Part shown: positions 2,885 to 48,480 of the stretch, piece by piece | How the letters are laid out: each line of letters opens with the position of its first letter | How positions within the stretch are numbered: position 1 is the first letter of the stretch | NCBI GenBank assembly: GCA_963799485.1 | Contig: CAWCXJ010000003.1 | Location: 1-52,597, forward strand | Reading direction: 5' to 3' | Source of the DNA: an uncultured Trueperaceae bacterium | Lineage (GTDB): Bacteria > Deinococcota > Deinococci > Deinococcales > Trueperaceae | DNA length: 52,597 nt | Program-made: the position numbers and the translations under genes | The notes under the pieces: generated by a model | Told to the model about the DNA's origin: nothing | The model's database searches: none | What the model saw: only the letters and a program-made list of their open reading frames with translations

Positions 2885-5800
2885 TTAGACGTTGACTGTC
2901 AAGGTCAGGTCAACGCTGACGGTGACGGTATAAACAGGTTGGACGGCTACCGACATGCTGATGCGGGGGTAGCCCTCACGGTTGAACGCGGGAGGCGTGA
3001 CGGTTGCCGACGCCGCCCCGACCAGCGCAGGCAGCTGTGCGCTAAGCGACCCCGTGGCCTCCGGAACAGTCGCCGCGCCGGTAGCGCCGCCTGTGAGCGC
3101 GGGCAGCGTCCCGTCTAGCTGTCCGGCATAGCCTGCCGTGCCGACGGTTGCGGTGCTGCTACCTGTGAAAGGTGGTAATGAACCGGAGGCTGTCCCGGTG
3201 ATGACCGGGGGTGCGCTTGCCGCTGTACCTAAAGTCGACAGCGCCGGGAGTGTAGCAGAAGCCTCACCGCTGAACGTGGGCGCGGTCGTACTTGCCGATC
3301 CGCTGCCCTGAAGCGCAGGAAGCGTCAGCGACCCGTAAGCGCCGCTCTCAGGTGGGGACGCGCGCGCGTCGGCGGTGCCGGACAACGCCGGAAGGTCGCC
3401 GCCGCCCGAACCGGTAAAGTGCGGCGCGGTTATGCTCGCCCCGCCGCTCCCGGCAAGCGACGGCAATGTGCCCGAGCCCACGCCCCCAAATTCAGGCGGC
3501 GCATTTGTTGCCGTACTCGAGCTGACCAGCCCCGGCATGACGCCGCCGCCGGTTGCACTGTACTGCGGCACGTCACTCTGTCCGGCCCCGCTCCCGGTCA
3601 AAGCGGGCAAACTTGCAGCCCCGGCTCCGCTGAACTCCGGCACTGCCGCAACTGCGCTACTTTGCCCGGTCAGACCCGGCAGGGTTGCATTTGCCGCCCC
3701 GCTGTAAGCCGGTACGTTGCTAGCCCCCTGCGCCAAGCCTTGCAACGCCGGTAGGTTCGCGTTTGCTGCGCCGCTGAACTGCGGAGCCGTCCCGGTTGCG
3801 GTTCCCGTTCCCAACAGCGCAGGCAAAGCGGCCGACCCCGACGGCGGTGTAACTTGGTTTGGTCGCCGCCCCTGTGCCCCCGCCGGTAAAAGCAGGAAGG
3901 AATCCGCTGAGATTGCCCGTGACCGGCGGTGTACTTCCCACCTCGGCAATTCTGATGAGTTTGACCGAATCGGTCGCGTCGAAACTCAGCGTGTCGGTTG
4001 TGACGGCCGCCCCAGGTGCGGTCTGCGTCCAGTCGTCAAAAACGCTGAGGGTCTTTTCCGCAGCCAGCTTCGAGCGTCACGTTCTGCGGTGCGACAGGTT
4101 CAGCCGCTTTCGTATCGGGGTGCATCCGGCGTTTTTCAATCCAGACGGCGAGGTAGCGCGAGCCGTCGCGTTTTTCAAACAGCGTACTTTGAACGTCGGC
4201 AGTTGCCCCGCTCAACCGGTAGCCGAGCGTGCCGGGGCTGTAGCTCGCGCCCGCGTCGCCCAGCACCGCCAGAAAGTTCTTCAGGTAGGTGTACACAAGC
4301 TTCGGGTTGAGGTTGATGTCAAGAATACCGAAGGTCTGCTGCTGCTCGCTCGTACCGCGTGCGTGGTCGAGCAAGTCGTAAATGACCAGCACGTTGCGGA
4401 AGCCCGGCGTTCCACCACACCAAAAACTGTCGCAAGGTGTAGTCGGCGTAAAGGCCTGCATCGTAGGCCAGTTCAAACGACGAATACCCGCCCTCGGTCG
4501 CCGCGTAGGGGCCACCGGGTTTGGTCAGGTCTTGCATTTGGTCGATGTGGTAACCCCTGACCGAGCCGTAAGCGTCGTTGTACGAGAGGTCACCCGCGAA
4601 CGTCGTAAAGCCGGGGTTCCGGGCCGCACCGTAAGGGTGCGAGTTGCCCGAGTCTACCCACTGTGACTGGTCGCCGTAGTCCTGGAAAAAGGTCGTCTCA
4701 CCGCTCCCGGCGAACGCAGGGCCGAGATGTTTGATGTGCGCAAAAGCGGGTCGCTGCGAAGGTCGTATTCGGTGTCCCGGACAAGCTCTTGCAAGTAGGT
4801 CACGTATTCAGCGTGTTTTGCGCCCCCGACCGCGACGTTCGCCACGCTGAAATAACCGTCGGCCTGACTTGCCCGACGCTTTTCTGCCGGGAACAAGTTG
4901 GGTTCGTTGGGCTGCTCGACGAACACCACGTTCTCCGGCCCCAGCTCGTTCAAGAAGTCAGGGAGTTTGTAGGGCAGCGCTTGTGTGCCCTGATGATACG
5001 GGTCGCTCCCCGGTGTGCCGTCGGGGTTGTACTGGTTCGGCACGAGCCCCGAACGCGGGTTGATGCTCACGCCCAGCTTGATGCCTGCCGCCGCCATCTC
5101 TTTGGCCTTAGCGATGCTGTCGGCAGAGTTCCACACCGCCCGGTAGAGCTTGATGTTGGAGTCAACGAGGCGCTGCTTGACCGTAGGCCAGTTGTTGATG
5201 TACTCGGCCCACTCGGTATGCCCTGCAATACCCACAGCCTCGGTAAACGCTTTGGCGCTCCCGGCCTGAACCTCAGGCAGCACAACCGGTAGCGGCGTGT
5301 CGGACGGCGCTTCGCCCAGCGTGATACCTTTCGCCGCAACCTCGGACACTACCGCGTTGTACGCCTCGGTAAACTCGGCGTCCGTAAGGTCGTGGTCATA
5401 AAAACGCCGCGCAGCCACAATGCCCTTGAAGGGTAACGACCCGTTGACGTGCCGGAACAGGTAGGCGTCCTCGACGTTGAAGGTGAACCCGCTCGTGGTG
5501 GCAAAGTCGGCAAACGTGGTGTTGACCTGCTGCCGGATGCGTGCGCCGTCCTTACGCACCGCGAAGTACGAACCACTGATTCGCCGCATAAGTCGGGCCG
5601 GTCGGCGTGCGAAAACTACCGTCCGAGCGCTTTTGGTCGTACCGGGTCGTACCGTCGGCCTGCAACTTCACGGTGCTGTTGTCGGCGCAGGTAAACAGAA
5701 TCGCGTCTTGAAGCGCGTCGGCAGCGATTACGTAGATGTCACAGAACGCGTTGACCTGGTACGGGGCGCGGTCGCCTACTACGAACGCGTCGGCGGGGTT

Positions 5801-10293: not shown

Positions 10294-10528
10294 CGGCGGC
10301 GCACGGCCCGGAACGGGCGGGGAACGTGTTGGAGCGGGGCGCAAACCGAAAGGCAAGCGCCCCCTTGTTCTGTTTCAAGTGAAAACGGATGAGCGTGTCA
10401 AGGCGGCATTCGAGTTGGCCTACAAAGAAGCCAACGACGAGCTTACCAAAGGCGAGTTTCTGGAACTCGTTTTGAGAAACTCGCCTGTTCTAAAAAAGGC
10501 TTTTATTACACTCTCCGAGCCTTATTAA
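10286..10528 (+). CDS. Small DNA-binding regulator (GGxRxGAGR plus ribbon-helix-helix-like), Aca-like position
   Basis: GGARPGTGGERVGAGRKPK then a beta-strand and two helices; last gene of operon. Confidence 0.65.
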   Translation: MPSGGARPGTGGERVGAGRKPKGKRPLVLFQVKTDERVKAAFELAYKEANDELTKGEFLELVLRNSPVLKKAFITLSEPY

Positions 10529-11162
10529 TAGATTCCTCTAACGACAACTTACGGCTTCTATAAAAATGCGCGAAACTTTTGTAGTGCAATCCAAGTTTCG
10601 CGCACAGCTCCGGCATCGCGTACGATTCTGATTCAAATTCAATACGGACACTACAGCGGCGGTTATTTTGTTGCTGAGCAATTGTCGCCCATCTGACGTT
10701 ACCCGGTTCATAATTTCCGTTGTTGTCAATTCGGTCAAGCGAATGTTTGGAACTAGGTCGTTTTCCTACATCAGCGAAAAAAGCCTCAAATGAATTGGCC
10801 CACCTTTCACAAACTTTAATACCCCTATCTGCATATCTTTCGCTAAAGCGGTAATAAGGGGTACACCGTTGCTTCATTGCTATCCAAGCATTGTGTTCCG
10901 GCGTTCGGTTCAAACCATGAGAAGTAGCCCTTTCTTTTCTTAACCGCTGGTTTTCGCAACCACAACTTATTGTGTGACCACAAGTAAAATTGTTACTGTC
11001 CAACTCGACTAAATTTCCACAAGCACAGATGCAAAGCCACCACATGCAGCGGCTGGCATGATTCGTCCGTTTGCCAAGTAGCGTTAAAACAGTAAGTTTG
11101 CCGAAAGTTTTGCCGGTCAAGTCTTTGACTTTACCTAAACTTTTAGGTGGGGTATATTCCAT
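10506..11162 (-). CDS. HNH-type homing endonuclease 1
   Basis: DLTGKTFGKLTV, WLCICACG, SCGC, RYADRGIKVCERW, SLDRIDNNGNYEPGNVRWAT; AT-rich; GGGAGG RBS. Confidence 0.9.
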   Translation of the reverse strand: MEYTPPKSLGKVKDLTGKTFGKLTVLTLLGKRTNHASRCMWWLCICACGNLVELDSNNFTCGHTISCGCENQRLRKERATSHGLNRTPEHNAWIAMKQRCTPYYRFSERYADRGIKVCERWANSFEAFFADVGKRPSSKHSLDRIDNNGNYEPGNVRWATIAQQQNNRRCSVRIEFESESYAMPELCAKLGLHYKSFAHFYRSRKLSLEESINKARRV

Positions 11163-11230
11163 TTGCAGACCTCCCAGTCTGTCGCGCCACGGCAGTGATT
11201 GCGTCACTGAGTCCGTGGCTTAATTATAAC
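11130..11230. promoter_or_regulatory. Convergent promoters around two hairpins (HNH1 leader)
   Basis: Minus TATAAT 11223-11228; plus TTTACC-17-TATATT; hairpins 11166-11181 and 11186-11219. Confidence 0.55.
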
Positions 11231-40971: not shown

Positions 40972-41709
40972 TCAAGCATTTTTAGACCGGGGATTTTTTT
41001 TCTCCTTGCACCGCTCCCTCATGTACTCGTCCGCGTCCTTCCGGGTAAGGTGGCGGACAAACTGGTGGCTTTCGGTGTCGAGATAGATACGGGTTTCGCG
41101 GTCTCTGCGTTTCAGCCACTCCATGAGCGCTTGCCGGGTCTTGCCCGTGTTTCTCGCCGTCTCGGCTAGCGGCACCCAGCCGGGTAGCGGCAGCCGATCC
41201 AGCAGCGTTTCCCGGACGTAACGGGCGTCGTCGGGGCTCAGGTAGAGGTTTTTGCGGAAACGGACGACGGTCACCTTCCCTTCTCGCTCGAGCCTGCTCA
41301 GGTGCTCACGCCCGCGAAGGGGCAGATCGCTCAAAACGCGCTTGACGCTCACGTACCCTTCAGGCTTTCTCGTGGCGCGGCCCTCGCTGTAGAGCGCGGC
41401 GATGTCGGCGCGAAGGTAGCCTGTGGTGCCGACCTCGAGGCGATAAGGACGCCTCCAGAGCTTGCGGCGAAGGAAAAACGCTCTGATTACCGAACGGCTG
41501 ACGTTAAAGGAGGCGGCGATTTCGGGGACCGACACGAAACCCTCCAGGTCGGGTTTGTTTTGTTCGGCGGCCAGCCTCCTGCGCTCCCTGACTCTCGCGT
41601 TGCGCCCTTTGCGCCGACAGGTGCCGGAGTGGTAGCGCTGCCGGGGGCGGACTCTGGGGTCGGGATGGGGCTCGAGGGGTCGCTCGCAGACGGCGCAAAG
41701 TTGGTTCAA
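40972..41709 (-). CDS. Zn-finger plus multiple-HTH DNA-binding protein
   Basis: CAVC..H..C; SVPEIAASFNVSRS; LAETARNTGKTRQAL. Confidence 0.65.
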   Translation of the reverse strand: MNQLCAVCERPLEPHPDPRVRPRQRYHSGTCRRKGRNARVRERRRLAAEQNKPDLEGFVSVPEIAASFNVSRSVIRAFFLRRKLWRRPYRLEVGTTGYLRADIAALYSEGRATRKPEGYVSVKRVLSDLPLRGREHLSRLEREGKVTVVRFRKNLYLSPDDARYVRETLLDRLPLPGWVPLAETARNTGKTRQALMEWLKRRDRETRIYLDTESHQFVRHLTRKDADEYMRERCKEKKNPRSKNA

Positions 41710-41932
41710 GAAACTCTCCTCAGTTCGGTCAGCAGCACCCTGACTTCAGCGCCGCCTACCTCGAGCACGGCGTAGTAGGGCTCAAGTGCCCGTACCCGTC
41801 CGGTCTGGCCTTGAAACTCACCCGAGAGCACCAGAGCGAGGGTGCCGGGGGCAAAGAGGGGCGGGCAGCCCTGCGCGTAACACGACGGGTAAGACCTGGG
41901 GCGTGGCGTATGGGGAGCCAAGACGCGGCGTT

Positions 41933-42439
41933 TCATCGGCGGTAAAACGTCCCTTCTAACGTACAATCCTCGAGAATCCTTAAAGCTTTTTTTCCGAAAC
42001 CCGCCATAAGGCTGGGCTCAAAACCGCCGACCGCGCCACCTTTACGTGGCCTTTCGCTTTCGCCATCCGGCAGCACGTACTTAACCCGGCCCCGAATTAA
42101 AAACAGCGCATCGGGCGGGTAATCGTGCAAAAAAGCGCCGTCAGTATTTCCGCGAACAAGTGCGATACCGGAACCGTGCGCGTGAAGCTTGGCTATCCAT
42201 TTCGTCTTTTCGCCGCGTGTCCAGGGAGGGTTGACCCAGACGAGGCCGTGCCAAGGCAGCTCAAGGCCGTTTTCGCCGCGCTGCAACGAGTAAGTCCGAC
42301 CCACGAAGGGCGTCATAGGATAAACACAATCCGGGGCGCAGGGGTCAAGGTCAAAGTGCGCGTTTAGACCCAAACCGATAGAGAGCGGGGTATAGCGAGA
42401 AACTTCTTTAGAGTGACCAGGCATTATTTGCTTGTTCAT
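41933..42439 (-). CDS. Phage DNA N6-adenine methyltransferase (Dam-like)
   Basis: RYTP, FDLDPCA, NGLELPWHGLVWVNPPW, GRVKY; ATG overlaps the HNH2 stop. Confidence 0.88.
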   Translation of the reverse strand: MNKQIMPGHSKEVSRYTPLSIGLGLNAHFDLDPCAPDCVYPMTPFVGRTYSLQRGENGLELPWHGLVWVNPPWTRGEKTKWIAKLHAHGSGIALVRGNTDGAFLHDYPPDALFLIRGRVKYVLPDGESERPRKGGAVGGFEPSLMAGFGKKALRILEDCTLEGTFYRR

Positions 42440-43095
42440 CGCCGCCGACTCCGGGTAAATGGTGCGGTAAGTGCTCGCTCTGCATCCCAACCGCGACGTA
42501 AACGCTGACCAACTGAGTTGGGCCGCAACCTTAGACGCCGCTCCCAAGCGTCAACCGTGAGTGTTAGCCCTTGAAAAGTGATGAAACGGTTCCGACGCGT
42601 GTTGCACGCCTGTTCTTGCCGAGTTGCCCAGCGACAGTTTTCAGGTGAATAGGGGCCGTCGTTGTTATCGCGTTCAAGCGTGTGCCCTTCCGGGCGCTCT
42701 CCCATATCGGCTAAAAAGTTTTCAAAACTGTGGAGCCAGCGGTCACAAATCTTAATACCTCGAGCCCCATAATCGGCATAACTTTTACTGTTTTGGTTTA
42801 AGCAACGCTTTTTCATACCGCTATACACTTCATATGTACGTGAAGCAGATAGACCGTGGGTCGTATTAGCGCCGGAGACAACCTCACCCCGCAAACAGCC
42901 ACAAGACTTAGTGTGACCGCTACGCAATTTTGTCCCCTGAACCAATTTTGTTACACCGCAGTCGCACTCACAAAGCCAGTACAACGTTCTTCTGGCATTA
43001 GCAAATGGTTCTAGCGCTGTTAATCTTCCGAATTTTTGACCACGGATGTTTACGGAATAGCTTTTAAGCTCAACGACATGAGTATAATCCGACAT
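42436..43095 (-). CDS. HNH-type homing endonuclease 2 (paralogue of HNH1)
   Basis: GQKFGRLT, WLCECDCG, SCGC, YGARGIKICDRW, TLERDNNDGPYSPENCRWAT; AAGGAGG RBS. Confidence 0.9.
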   Translation of the reverse strand: MSDYTHVVELKSYSVNIRGQKFGRLTALEPFANARRTLYWLCECDCGVTKLVQGTKLRSGHTKSCGCLRGEVVSGANTTHGLSASRTYEVYSGMKKRCLNQNSKSYADYGARGIKICDRWLHSFENFLADMGERPEGHTLERDNNDGPYSPENCRWATRQEQACNTRRNRFITFQGLTLTVDAWERRLRLRPNSVGQRLRRGWDAERALTAPFTRSRRR

Positions 43096-43165
43096 GTGAC
43101 CTCCTTGTAGGTCGCCGCGCCGGGAGTGTTGCAAGCACGTCCCGGCTGACTCGTCTATCATAGCA
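43083..43165. promoter_or_regulatory. Convergent promoters around two hairpins (HNH2 leader)
   Basis: Minus TGcTATGAT 43157-43165; plus TATAAT 43083-43088; hairpins 43098-43113 and 43119-43146. Confidence 0.55.
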
Positions 43166-43185
43166 CGTCCAGCACGCAAAAACTC

Positions 43186-43236
43186 TGTATACCGCTCAAT
43201 CTGCCGGGAATGCGCGGGCATCGTTTGAGCACTCAT
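43186..43236 (-). pseudogene. Orphan 17-codon N-terminus of the methyltransferase
   Basis: MSAQTMPAHSRQIERYT vs MNKQIMPGHSKEVSRYT, 9/17 identical. Confidence 0.75.
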
Positions 43237-43604
43237 CTAAACAATTCCACTTCTTCGGTCGTCCGGTATTTCACCCCGAAAGTCTGCTCATAAGCGGTTC
43301 GCTGAGCGTCTAGGGCGCGGTTGATATCTTCAACTCGAGCCGACTGGTACTCAATAATTTTTCTTGCGGTGTATTCGTCGCGAGCCGCGCAGTAAACTTT
43401 GCGCGAAGGGTCAAAGCCGATAATCCAAACCCGACCATCCGACATAGGCCGGGTAGCGGCGAGCGTCCGGCAAGCGTTTACCGCGTCGCGGGCCGTCCGG
43501 TCGTCGCATTTGAGTTTGGCGGCCAGGTTGAGGCGGGTCAAACCGTCCGGGTGCGTGGTCAACAGCCGGTAGACTTCGCGGGCCAGCTCGAGGTTGGCTG
43601 CCAT
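43233..43604 (-). CDS. Winged-HTH protein
   Basis: LTRLNLAAKLKCDDRTARDAV. Confidence 0.65.
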   Translation of the reverse strand: MAANLELAREVYRLLTTHPDGLTRLNLAAKLKCDDRTARDAVNACRTLAATRPMSDGRVWIIGFDPSRKVYCAARDEYTARKIIEYQSARVEDINRALDAQRTAYEQTFGVKYRTTEEVELFR

Positions 43605-44860
43605 TAAAAACTCCTTGCCGCACTTTCATAAGATGCATAACGACCGCGCCAATGAATCGGCACCGATCCGGTCGCGCCTACTTTGTTCTTGAGCACGTGC
43701 CAGACGGCTGTTTGCTCTTCGTTCGTGCTAATCGTCGTGTCCCGGTCAAGAGCCATCACGATGTCAGCGTCCTGCTCAATTTGACCCGATCCGCGCAGCA
43801 TGGATAAGCTCGGAGCTTTGCCGCGTTCAAAACCTCGGTTGAACTGGGCAAGCGCCAAAATCGGAATACGAAGGGTGAAAGCGAGCGTCTTGAGCGCTTT
43901 TGACGCAGCCGTTACGCTTTCGTATTCGTCGCTGTGGCCGGTGTCTAAAATTTGCAGATAATCAATCACAACCAGGCTCGGAGTATTCGTTTTGATTAGA
44001 GTAATCAGGCTTTCCAACCGAACCGGCGTGTCAACCAGAGTCACACGGTCACGCCAAACTTTCTCGCGCACATCACGGATACCTTGCGCCACTTCGTCAA
44101 ACGGCATACGCTGCACCGCTTTGGTGTCAAGGCGCTTGTGACGGGCGATTTCCAGCTCGAGAATTTGGTTCTCGCTTTGGTCTGGGCTGTACCACAACAC
44201 CCGGTCGCCACGAGCTGCAACGTTCCGAATGATCCCACGAGCTAGCGCAGACTTACCTACGGAGGGACGTGCAGCCAAAATGTTGAGCCCAGGCTTTGCA
44301 ATCCCTCCGGTGAGATGGTCAAAATCGCCGTAGCCTGTTGCGTAGCGTGATCCCGGCCCGATAAGTCGCGCCAAGTCTTCATCACTGCGCTCGTCAAAAC
44401 TGGAAACGGCGCTGTCTAAAATTGTCAGCACCGCGTCAAGTTCAAGCCGCGCTTCGTTTTGGTCGTCGCCTTTGGCTATCGCCGACTGGTACTTAAGTGC
44501 AGCTTTTCCTTTTTCGCGCACCACGTATAATTCCTTAACCTGCTGGGCGTAAAGATAGGCATAAGCACTCGTCGGGTGATAGTCGCCGCCGAAGATGTGT
44601 GTAAGTGGGTTGAGAACGTCCAGAGCTATCGTAAAGTCACCCCGCACTCGGAACGCTGCCACAACGGTAGCAAAGTCGAACGCGCCGTGCTGAGCGTACT
44701 GACGCTGTATCTCATCCCAAACGTGCCGGTTGCGCTCACCGTAAAAAACCTCGGTTGGCATCGCGGCCCACGGTTCACCTAAGCAGTCCGGATGACAGAA
44801 GCAGCACGCCAAAAGCGTCAGCTCGAGGTCTTGATCGTGCCGGTGGATTAGTTCGGACAT
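43604..44860 (-). CDS. dnaB: Replicative DNA helicase
   Basis: AARPSVGKS, VVIDYLQ, LAQFNR, LRGSGQIEQDAD, KNK.G.TG. Confidence 0.95.
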   Translation of the reverse strand: MSELIHRHDQDLELTLLACCFCHPDCLGEPWAAMPTEVFYGERNRHVWDEIQRQYAQHGAFDFATVVAAFRVRGDFTIALDVLNPLTHIFGGDYHPTSAYAYLYAQQVKELYVVREKGKAALKYQSAIAKGDDQNEARLELDAVLTILDSAVSSFDERSDEDLARLIGPGSRYATGYGDFDHLTGGIAKPGLNILAARPSVGKSALARGIIRNVAARGDRVLWYSPDQSENQILELEIARHKRLDTKAVQRMPFDEVAQGIRDVREKVWRDRVTLVDTPVRLESLITLIKTNTPSLVVIDYLQILDTGHSDEYESVTAASKALKTLAFTLRIPILALAQFNRGFERGKAPSLSMLRGSGQIEQDADIVMALDRDTTISTNEEQTAVWHVLKNKVGATGSVPIHWRGRYASYESAARSF

Positions 44861-47535: not shown

Positions 47536-47632
47536 CGTTCACTCCTACGCCGTCCGTAACGCTCCAAAAGCAGCGCCCCGGCGATAAGCAGTGCTGCCTT
47601 GATAAGCAGCCACAGTTCAGGGCCGAAGTCGA

Positions 47633-48109
47633 TCATGAAACGTGTTTCCATGTCTCTCTCCTGAGAACCGCTCCGATGGTATGTAGAGCAACCCCATAAT
47701 CCTCGGCTAGCTGTTTTTGTGTCTTGGCAGGGTAGGCTTTGCGGATTTCACGGACTTTCACTTCTGTTAAACGAGCGTTGCGTGCGTTTTCCCCACGGAG
47801 TGGGGTAACTTTGAAAGTACGAGTACGATTCGTGAGCGTGGTATGGGGGCCGCGCCGAAGTGGTTCTAAGTGTTCCGGATTAACACAACGTTTGATTCCG
47901 CACTTATGGTGCAAATCAAGATCACCAAAAGACCCGTGCAAAAACTCGTAAGCCAATCGGTGTGCAAATCGAGCTTTACCATAAAATCCAAATCGACCGT
48001 AACCTTTTTTGTTGGTTCCAGCTTTCCACAACCAACAGGGACTTTTTAATTCAGGATGAATAGGCCCGTTTTTGTTAACGTAAGACCAGAGTCGCTCTTC
48101 TGCCGTCAT
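47633..48109 (-). CDS. HNH endonuclease 3 (HNH_3-like, C-terminal HTH)
   Basis: CWLWK..GYG..AHRLAYE..HHKC....CVNPEHL. Confidence 0.9.
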   Translation of the reverse strand: MTAEERLWSYVNKNGPIHPELKSPCWLWKAGTNKKGYGRFGFYGKARFAHRLAYEFLHGSFGDLDLHHKCGIKRCVNPEHLEPLRRGPHTTLTNRTRTFKVTPLRGENARNARLTEVKVREIRKAYPAKTQKQLAEDYGVALHTIGAVLRRETWKHVS

Positions 48110-48480
48110 CTTTTGAGGTCTCCGACGACCAAAACGCGCTTGCCGATGTCGCCTAAATCAGAATCGTCGAGTTGCACAGTCAGAACCCTGCGTCCGCCCA
48201 AACCGTAATGCCACAGCGCAATCGTCCCCCGAAGAGCCTCGATGCCGCCGATATGGGCTTCGCTCTCTACGCTCGCCAAAATGCCCTGCACATACTCCTG
48301 CGGCCCCGCTGCGGCCCTCTGAGCGTCCACACGGGCCTTATCCATCGCCCATAAGGTGTCTGCCGTTTTCCGTAGCTCTTGCGCTGCTCTCAGGTCTGCC
48401 GGGTCGGTGCTTTGGGCTAGTTTTGCGGCAAGGGTATGCAAGGTTCCTGAGCTGTACCTTATCTGTGACTCAGCGCACAT
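48106..48480 (-). CDS. Hypothetical protein
   Basis: AAGGAG RBS; coupled to HNH3. Confidence 0.55.
   Translation of the reverse strand: MCAESQIRYSSGTLHTLAAKLAQSTDPADLRAAQELRKTADTLWAMDKARVDAQRAAAGPQEYVQGILASVESEAHIGGIEALRGTIALWHYGLGGRRVLTVQLDDSDLGDIGKRVLVVGDLKR

Follow-up and report, generated by a model that had tools for sequence, protein, structure and literature searches.

The window, a phage-like contig of 52.6 kb (52,597 nucleotides, the whole of contig C3) that is one of 15 contigs in an assembly from an uncultured Trueperaceae bacterium, carries on its minus strand a gene for an HNH-type nuclease lying between two copies of the start of a DNA methyltransferase (methylase) gene (Table 1). 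The methylase is fused to a foreign, working version of its 5′ end, while the native version lies as an orphan on the other side of the nuclease gene. We consider it likely that this arrangement arose through one-sided homing of a free-standing homing endonuclease gene of the HNH type, which left the resident stub behind as an orphan. An initial annotation, made by a model from the letters of the DNA, had reported the translational couplings, the 9/17 identity of the two starts, their codon differences and the in-frame position of the orphan, and all of these statements held on recheck. Its description of a split methylase gene did not survive, since the downstream copy encodes the entire methylase and the 17 codons upstream of the nuclease gene are a remnant.

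The orphan and the new start have nine of 17 residues and 28 of 51 nucleotides (nt) in common, with a longest shared run of 5 nt, and five of the nine shared residues are encoded by different codons (CCC/CCT, CAT/CAC, TCC/TCT, CGG/CGC, ACA/ACC). Both fit the N-terminal motif of the methylase family, MPAHSxxxERYTP, in which T17 and P18 are invariant in 19/19 aligned relatives, and their likeness is therefore attributed to homology and not to chance.

The empty allele predicted by the initial annotation was found in a second contig, C2, and as a database protein, P0001. C2 is a syntenic sibling contig in the same assembly, and a comparison of G000:C2 1880–58740 with window 1–52597 showed the two to be mosaic, with nucleotide blocks that are 75–98% identical. 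In C2, a homologue of the upstream gene (125 amino acids (aa); 76.7% nucleotide identity between C3 and C2) is ATGA-coupled straight to a methylase of 169 aa (MSAQTMPAHSRQIERYTP, MSAQTMPAHSRQIERYTPRYIFEGL) without a nuclease gene, such that the HNH gene is polymorphic for presence and absence at one site, between the same two genes. The stub matches the start of the C2 methylase in 17/17 residues and 47/51 nt, and all four nucleotide differences are synonymous, indicating that the stub is young. Nucleotide homology between C3 and C2 ends directly after the Thr17 codon and resumes at about codon 69, after which the sequences are nearly identical.

P0001 is encoded on a 56.7-kb contig and falls into the same 90% cluster as the window methylase. 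It starts with MSAQTMPAHSRQIERYTPAF, a continuous MSAQTMPAHSRQIERYTP-type start, and its residues 21–168 are identical to those of the window methylase. Overall, 158 of 168 residues agree, and all ten differences lie within residues 1–20 (eight in the first 17, two at positions 19–20), a clustering with a chance probability of about 5e-11. Given that the cluster of the window nuclease, P0061, has one member on one contig, the contig encoding P0001 is without this nuclease at an identity of at least 90%. Judged by sequence, P0001 is the uninterrupted form of the window's methylase.

The methylase of C2 (L005:1501–2010) represents a third allele of the 5′ third of the gene (codons 19–68): compared with P0001, residues 1–18 are identical, residues 19–68 are weakly alike and residues 69–168 are nearly identical. 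Judging from this pattern, the segment between the YTP and NPPW motifs can be replaced also in alleles that have no nuclease gene, and it is perhaps the scar of earlier homing.

The working start of the window methylase is of foreign origin. The GC content at third codon positions (GC3) is 0.457 in the HNH gene and 0.45 in the new codons 1–20 (overall GC 0.433), compared with 0.588 in the orphan stub, 0.688 in methylase codons 21–68 and 0.667 in the upstream gene, all of them resident parts. The start of P0008 (MPAHSKNVSRYTPLS) is identical to the window's new start at 13/15 positions (read by eye), and by this likeness the new start is a natural foreign allele of the methylase family that is closest to P0008-type starts. 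Because of the resemblance to P0008 and the donor base composition, the synonymous differences between the two starts are explained as what a distant low-GC allele brings, and not as special recoding; the term "recoded" in the initial annotation was thus an overstatement. Its proposal that the nuclease gene brings a substitute 5′ end is borne out, since the change is confined to residues 1–20 and these share their GC3 with the HNH gene, which argues that both arrived together. This is the pattern of flanking co-conversion, with codons 1–20 changed along with the HNH insertion and of like composition, and by these comparisons the tract that came with the nuclease comprises codons 1–20 only.

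The same architecture recurs at other viral loci. Loci in IMG/VR with HNH relatives (163 loci, 121 distinct) were scanned for the end of the neighbouring gene beyond the nuclease gene, with 100 shuffles as the reference; 100 loci were scorable for the N-terminal type, including the window as a control (99 without it), and 88 for the C-terminal type. In the N-terminal scan the window scored z 12.3, L015/L180 z 10 and L221 z 8.5, the next best locus reaching z 3.0, and an orphan N-terminus upstream of the HNH gene is accordingly present at two of the 99 non-control loci (L015/L180 and L221). The mirror image, a duplicated C-terminus, was clear at L220 (z 11.1) and L244 (z 6.2) and possible at L191 (z 4.8); at L220:2206–3161 and L244:1981–3182 a second copy of the C-terminus of the upstream gene lies just past the HNH gene, and L191:485–1165 holds a weaker, possible duplicated gene end. 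A further locus of the C-terminal scan, L073 (z 5.1), was judged unconvincing on inspection.

At L015:2900–3932 (a contig shared with L113 and L180), a NinB-like gene is ATGA-coupled to a 22-codon orphan start (MTAFPKIAYTRSKALLVACREI), AAGGAG follows directly after the stub, and the stop of the HNH gene (2977–3597) overlaps, as GTGA, the start of the full target gene (MNFPKHQYVRSKTLMAAYREIPCQ). The two starts agree at 12/19 residues and 31/57 nt, for 5 nt in a row at most, and both fit the N-terminal motif of the target family (66 relatives); the GC content falls across the HNH gene and the new start. The same gene pair is found in L114:228–1569 in a donor-type layout, that is, NinB-like gene, ATGA, HNH gene (641–1240), ATGA and target gene, with no orphan. 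The L114 nuclease is 38% identical to that of L015, indicating that different nucleases occupy the same site. The second N-terminal case, L221:2388–3330, has the orphan N-terminus MAIDPFQLKFEEAIEV.

Table 1. Features of the nuclease–methylase locus of the window, in the order of transcription.
Feature	Position	Strand	Remarks
Upstream gene, 123 aa	43604–43233	-	no family match; ends TTT AGA TGA; stop overlaps the orphan ATG (ATGA)
Orphan 5′ stub of the resident methylase, 17 codons, MSAQTMPAHSRQIERYT	43236–43186	-	17/17 residues as in the C2 start and P0001
Frame of 266 aa opened by the orphan start, running into the HNH gene	43236–42436	-	
Linker, 90 nt, 30 codons, open, in frame with stub and HNH gene	43185–43096	-	
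Ribosome-binding site of the HNH gene, AAGGAGG	43106–43100	-	four bases ahead of the ATG at 43095
HNH-type nuclease gene, 219 aa from its own ATG	43095–42436	-	TGA at 42438–42436; phrog_374
Complete Dam-like methylase, 168 aa, begins MNKQIMPGHSKEVSRYTP	42439–41933	-	ATG overlaps the HNH stop (ATGA 42439–42436)
Foreign replacement methylase codons 1–20, MNKQIMPGHSKEVSRYTPLS	42439–42380	-	holds all 10 differences from P0001
Resident methylase body, codons 21–168 and stop	42379–41933	-	identical to P0001 residues 21–168; phrog_111

The initial annotation had also pointed to the reading frame shared by orphan and HNH gene. The frame is indeed open into the HNH gene; the link is probably incidental, because an open in-frame connection is expected by chance in about 13% of cases (one of three frames, with 0.39 of 30-codon windows open) and is absent in both other N-terminal cases, where the stub ends in a stop. 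The linker has no second copy in the genome and no homology among the HNH homologues, including the longer ones, and neither promoter-like sites nor minus-strand terminator-like sites were found in 41600–44000.

The 168-aa protein matched phrog_111, "DNA methyltransferase" (3.6e-17), and a tblastn search with it returned 173 phage records, many of them labelled (adenine) DNA methyltransferase. Against PF05869 (Dam) it scored 12.1 bits, under the Pfam cut-off of 28.1; this family was matched by 12 of the 19 aligned methylase relatives (best 9.7e-11), and the window protein retains all 23 invariant family columns, with NPPW, FDLDP and YTP among the conserved motifs. By this family comparison, the window methylase is assigned to the phage Dam-like N6-adenine methyltransferases (PF05869). 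Sequence searches of the PDB gave nothing usable for the methylase profile or the HNH protein.

The 219-aa protein is likely to be an HNH-type nuclease by its matches to five PHROG families annotated as HNH endonuclease (best phrog_374, 1.3e-70). N153 and N165 are invariant in the nuclease family (alignment A3, 35 HNH relatives), in which an invariant Arg takes the place of the usual first His, and the AlphaFold2 model of the window protein (predicted local distance difference test score 89.8) contains a strand at 138–142, a strand at 154–158 and a helix at 159–163. The family is very large, with E <= 1e-20 for 7,815 of the 7,999 candidates scored, and its catalytic chemistry seems to be uncharacterised. 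A CxC...SCGC cluster and the His of THG are likewise invariant in alignment A3. The methylase N-terminal motif was not seen at the start of any of the 120 HNH relatives listed, a scan that says little because the regular expression used recognises just 17 of 60 methylases and gene callers start at internal ATG codons.

Three paralogues of the HNH family are present in the assembly (window 42436–43095, window 10506–11207 and C2 6585–7367), all at sites where C2 and C3 do not match. Elsewhere, a 618-bp segment of the window (47627–48244) stands in place of 147 bp of C2 (6225–6371) and holds an open reading frame (ORF) of 158 aa (48109–47633). Its HHKCG...C.NPEHL stretch resembles what we take to be the motif of another HNH-type nuclease, and the C-terminal half of a 362-aa ORF of C2 (9335–10423) presumably represents an HNH-plus-AP2-type homing endonuclease.

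The proposed course of events would start from a donor phage whose nuclease gene directly preceded a related methylase gene, the two being translationally coupled. In a phage with a P0001-type methylase, a break would have occurred at or beside the invariant YTP codons (16–18), and we infer from the sequence that the nuclease made this break, where it cut and that the new allele resists it. The downstream end would have been repaired from the donor methylase, with a crossover by codon 21, while the upstream end, being without homology, would have undergone an illegitimate join to the donor DNA that precedes the nuclease gene. The product would then consist of the resident 17-codon stub, a 90-nt donor linker, the HNH gene, donor codons 1–20 and the resident methylase body; the methylase would stay whole and be translated by coupling to the HNH stop, and the stub would keep its old coupled start, so that ribosomes could also read from the stub into the nuclease. 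The left junction lies after codon 17 and has no homology partner, and the right junction lies between residues 20 and 21; a distance of about four codons that straddles YTP fits a single break at this motif that was repaired in two ways. One-sided intron homing with illegitimate repair at microhomology has been demonstrated experimentally in T4, according to the available text of PMC2988022. With resident sequence now flanking it on both sides as homology arms, the cassette could use ordinary break repair to home into alleles of the P0001 kind.

Searches for the DNA of the empty P0001 allele or for a second filled allele recovered neither, and brought up distant relatives only. The exact 29-nt stub pattern had no match in the viral, metagenome and genome collections, and no relatives of the C3 or C2 methylase were found in IMG/VR. 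With alignment A2 as the query, the relatives recovered, in 23 genome loci, were at most 42% identical, and a single metagenome locus reached 54%. Searches for the methylase allele at the family level (128 genomes) and the order level (363 genomes) yielded only G103, with 43–45% identity, helicase-anchored loci were all at most 37% identical, and phage GenBank contained no close relative (methylase matches below 60% identity, DNA matches over about 4% of the query). Contigs from the sequencing runs X1 and X2 are short and cover parts of the filled allele or of the sequence beside it, and no joints were reported from these runs.

Several points weigh against homing by this nuclease. Cleavage by it is putative, the filled allele is known from a single instance, the position of the right junction comes from the protein level only (P0001 was compared as a protein), and YTP, being the most conserved stretch of the 5′ region, could draw crossovers without any nuclease. 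A Pfam HNH domain was detected in none of the 35 family members nor in the window nuclease, and the position of the canonical first His is occupied by an invariant Arg (Arg142 in the window protein). Foldseek returned no match to the nuclease model at E <= 0.001, and the best match in the full fold library, to the HNH restriction enzyme PacI, was middling (Z 6.3, root-mean-square deviation 2.1 over 74 residues; nuclease residues 81–169). Moreover, neither a relative more than 55% identical to the window HNH protein nor a donor genome was found, and none of 80 viral loci with HNH relatives has this methylase family within 3 kb, which indicates that the nuclease family has no fixed link to methylases.

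Some of these points favour the serious rival, plain mosaic recombination, according to which a phage with an HNH-plus-methylase module recombined with a P0001-type phage at the YTP codons by a chance exchange, illegitimate or over short homology, with the nuclease a mere passenger that is maybe inactive or domesticated. These phages are strongly mosaic, the invariant YTP is also a breakpoint between the HNH-free C2 and P0001 alleles, and a nuclease family with neither a Pfam HNH match nor the canonical His would suit a passenger role. We nevertheless regard this explanation as rather unlikely, given that the left junction has no homology partner and yet lies about four codons from the right one, that the same end duplication occurs beside HNH relatives in four other unrelated genes, and that the HNH paralogues behave as presence/absence insertions.

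A local tandem duplication of the methylase 5′ end, with one copy diverging and the HNH gene inserted between them later, would account for two homologous starts 800 nt apart in direct orientation, but is very improbable, as the functional copy differs at 10/20 residues while the next 148 equal P0001, and the new start has a donor-like low GC3 and resembles the P0008 lineage. The chance that the metagenome-assembled contig is an assembly chimera of two strains is slighter still: the window makes up an entire contig in an assembly of 15, among them a sibling phage contig, with only short independent contigs to check it against, but the reading frames and both ATGA couplings are intact, the same architecture exists in unrelated IMG/VR contigs, and an X1 contig (record 4, 43069–43289, one difference) extends across the left junction by over 100 nt to either side. 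This contig is not independent, since X1 is perhaps the source sample itself, and the right junction is spanned by just 22 nt on one side. A self-splicing element (group I or II intron, or intein) carrying the HNH gene, with the stub as exon 1, is close to refuted: joining the stub to the downstream Pro18 would in principle yield a full methylase and the stub is in frame with the HNH gene, but there are no Rfam matches at E <= 1 in 41500–44000, the RNA fold of the linker is not stable (z = -0.05), just 90 nt are non-HNH and no spacer follows the HNH gene, a splicing element has no need of a second full N-terminus, and an intein is excluded because a TGA closes the HNH frame and the methylase is read from its own ATG in a different frame. 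The lack of any sign of splicing agrees with the initial annotation, whose interpretation, taken as a whole, was right in architecture and is partly supported, with cleavage and resistance being its putative components.

One-sided homing, as we favour it here, has counterparts in other systems, which are described below as they appear in the available text of the sources cited. In the WHO elements of Torulaspora and Lachancea (Coughlan et al., eLife 2020, PMC7282813), the 3′ end of FBA1 is replaced at each integration and FBA1 fragments are left behind. As in the window, the target gene has an endonuclease gene as its neighbour and has exchanged one end for a version that the element carries, the old end being displaced; no intron or intein splicing is needed, and the mobile unit of WHO consists of the nuclease gene and a resistant gene end. 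WHO elements differ in that they encode intein-like LAGLIDADG/zinc-finger proteins, act in a eukaryotic nucleus, replace a 3′ end of about 400 bp and have demonstrated cleavage and allele specificity, whereas the window represents a phage, an HNH-type protein with putative cleavage, a 5′ end of 60 nt and coupled translation.

Mitochondrial mobile ORFs (mORFs) with duplicated termini, in Allomyces atp6 and Glomus atp6, atp9, cox2 and nad3 (Beaudet et al. 2013, PMC3630166), are likewise comparable: a free endonuclease ORF brings a foreign gene end along with it, which yields a hybrid gene, the native end is nearly identical to that of an ORF-less relative while the inserted end is divergent, and in some cases the ORF and the host gene are in phase. 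The mORFs encode LAGLIDADG or GIY-YIG enzymes, reside in mitochondria and replace the C-terminal end, leaving the native one downstream. The window is their N-terminal mirror image, and L220 and L244 are C-terminal versions.

Among phages, the intronless homing of T4 SegF, SegG and MobE (PMC2988022) similarly involves a free-standing nuclease gene beside its target and break repair that co-converts the flanks, and illegitimate joins have been demonstrated where one flank alone is homologous, but a leftover duplicated gene end is not described in the available text, in which "duplicat", "remnant" and "pseudogene" occur 0 times. In nrdA/mobE of the Aeromonas phage Aeh1 (Friedrich et al. 2007, cited in PMC10448857 and PMC2988022), an HNH gene lies inside a phage gene that is unspliced and keeps its function; that gene is cut into two working polypeptides, whereas the window gene is made whole by a carried-in start and its stub is surplus. 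No report of a phage homing endonuclease gene with a duplicated gene end next to it was found in titles and the starts of abstracts or in the available text of PMC10448857 and PMC2988022, subscription journals being outside the scope of this search. The layout is known from yeast and fungal mitochondria and, as far as could be found in the literature so covered, has not been described for phages. New here is a phage, HNH-type, 5′-end and translationally coupled form of a known type of selfish element.

By bringing the start of the gene with it, a selfish nuclease gene can occupy a phage coding region without splicing and without loss of the host gene, and the orphan stub would provide a sequence-only readout of the probable cut site (between the T and the P of YTP) for a very large, uncharacterised nuclease family. 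Tentatively, and with slightly more doubt than confidence, we propose that the HNH family forms "cut and rescue" cassettes that cut a conserved end motif and carry a divergent, resistant copy of the gene end, as a general and undescribed route of entry. Such a cassette would be a natural counterpart of engineered home-and-rescue gene drives. If the proposal is true, a cassette could invade phages that are homologous on one side only, the orphan stub would mark the cut site, and the window, L015, L221, L220 and L244 would be instances of one route, free of introns and inteins, by which hybrid genes are made. The layout occurs at either end of phage genes that are unrelated to each other, which suggests that hybrid genes, short orphan ORFs and annotation errors in phage genomes have a general source here, and the finding ties phage biology to the yeast WHO/HO story and to the mobile ORFs of mitochondria.

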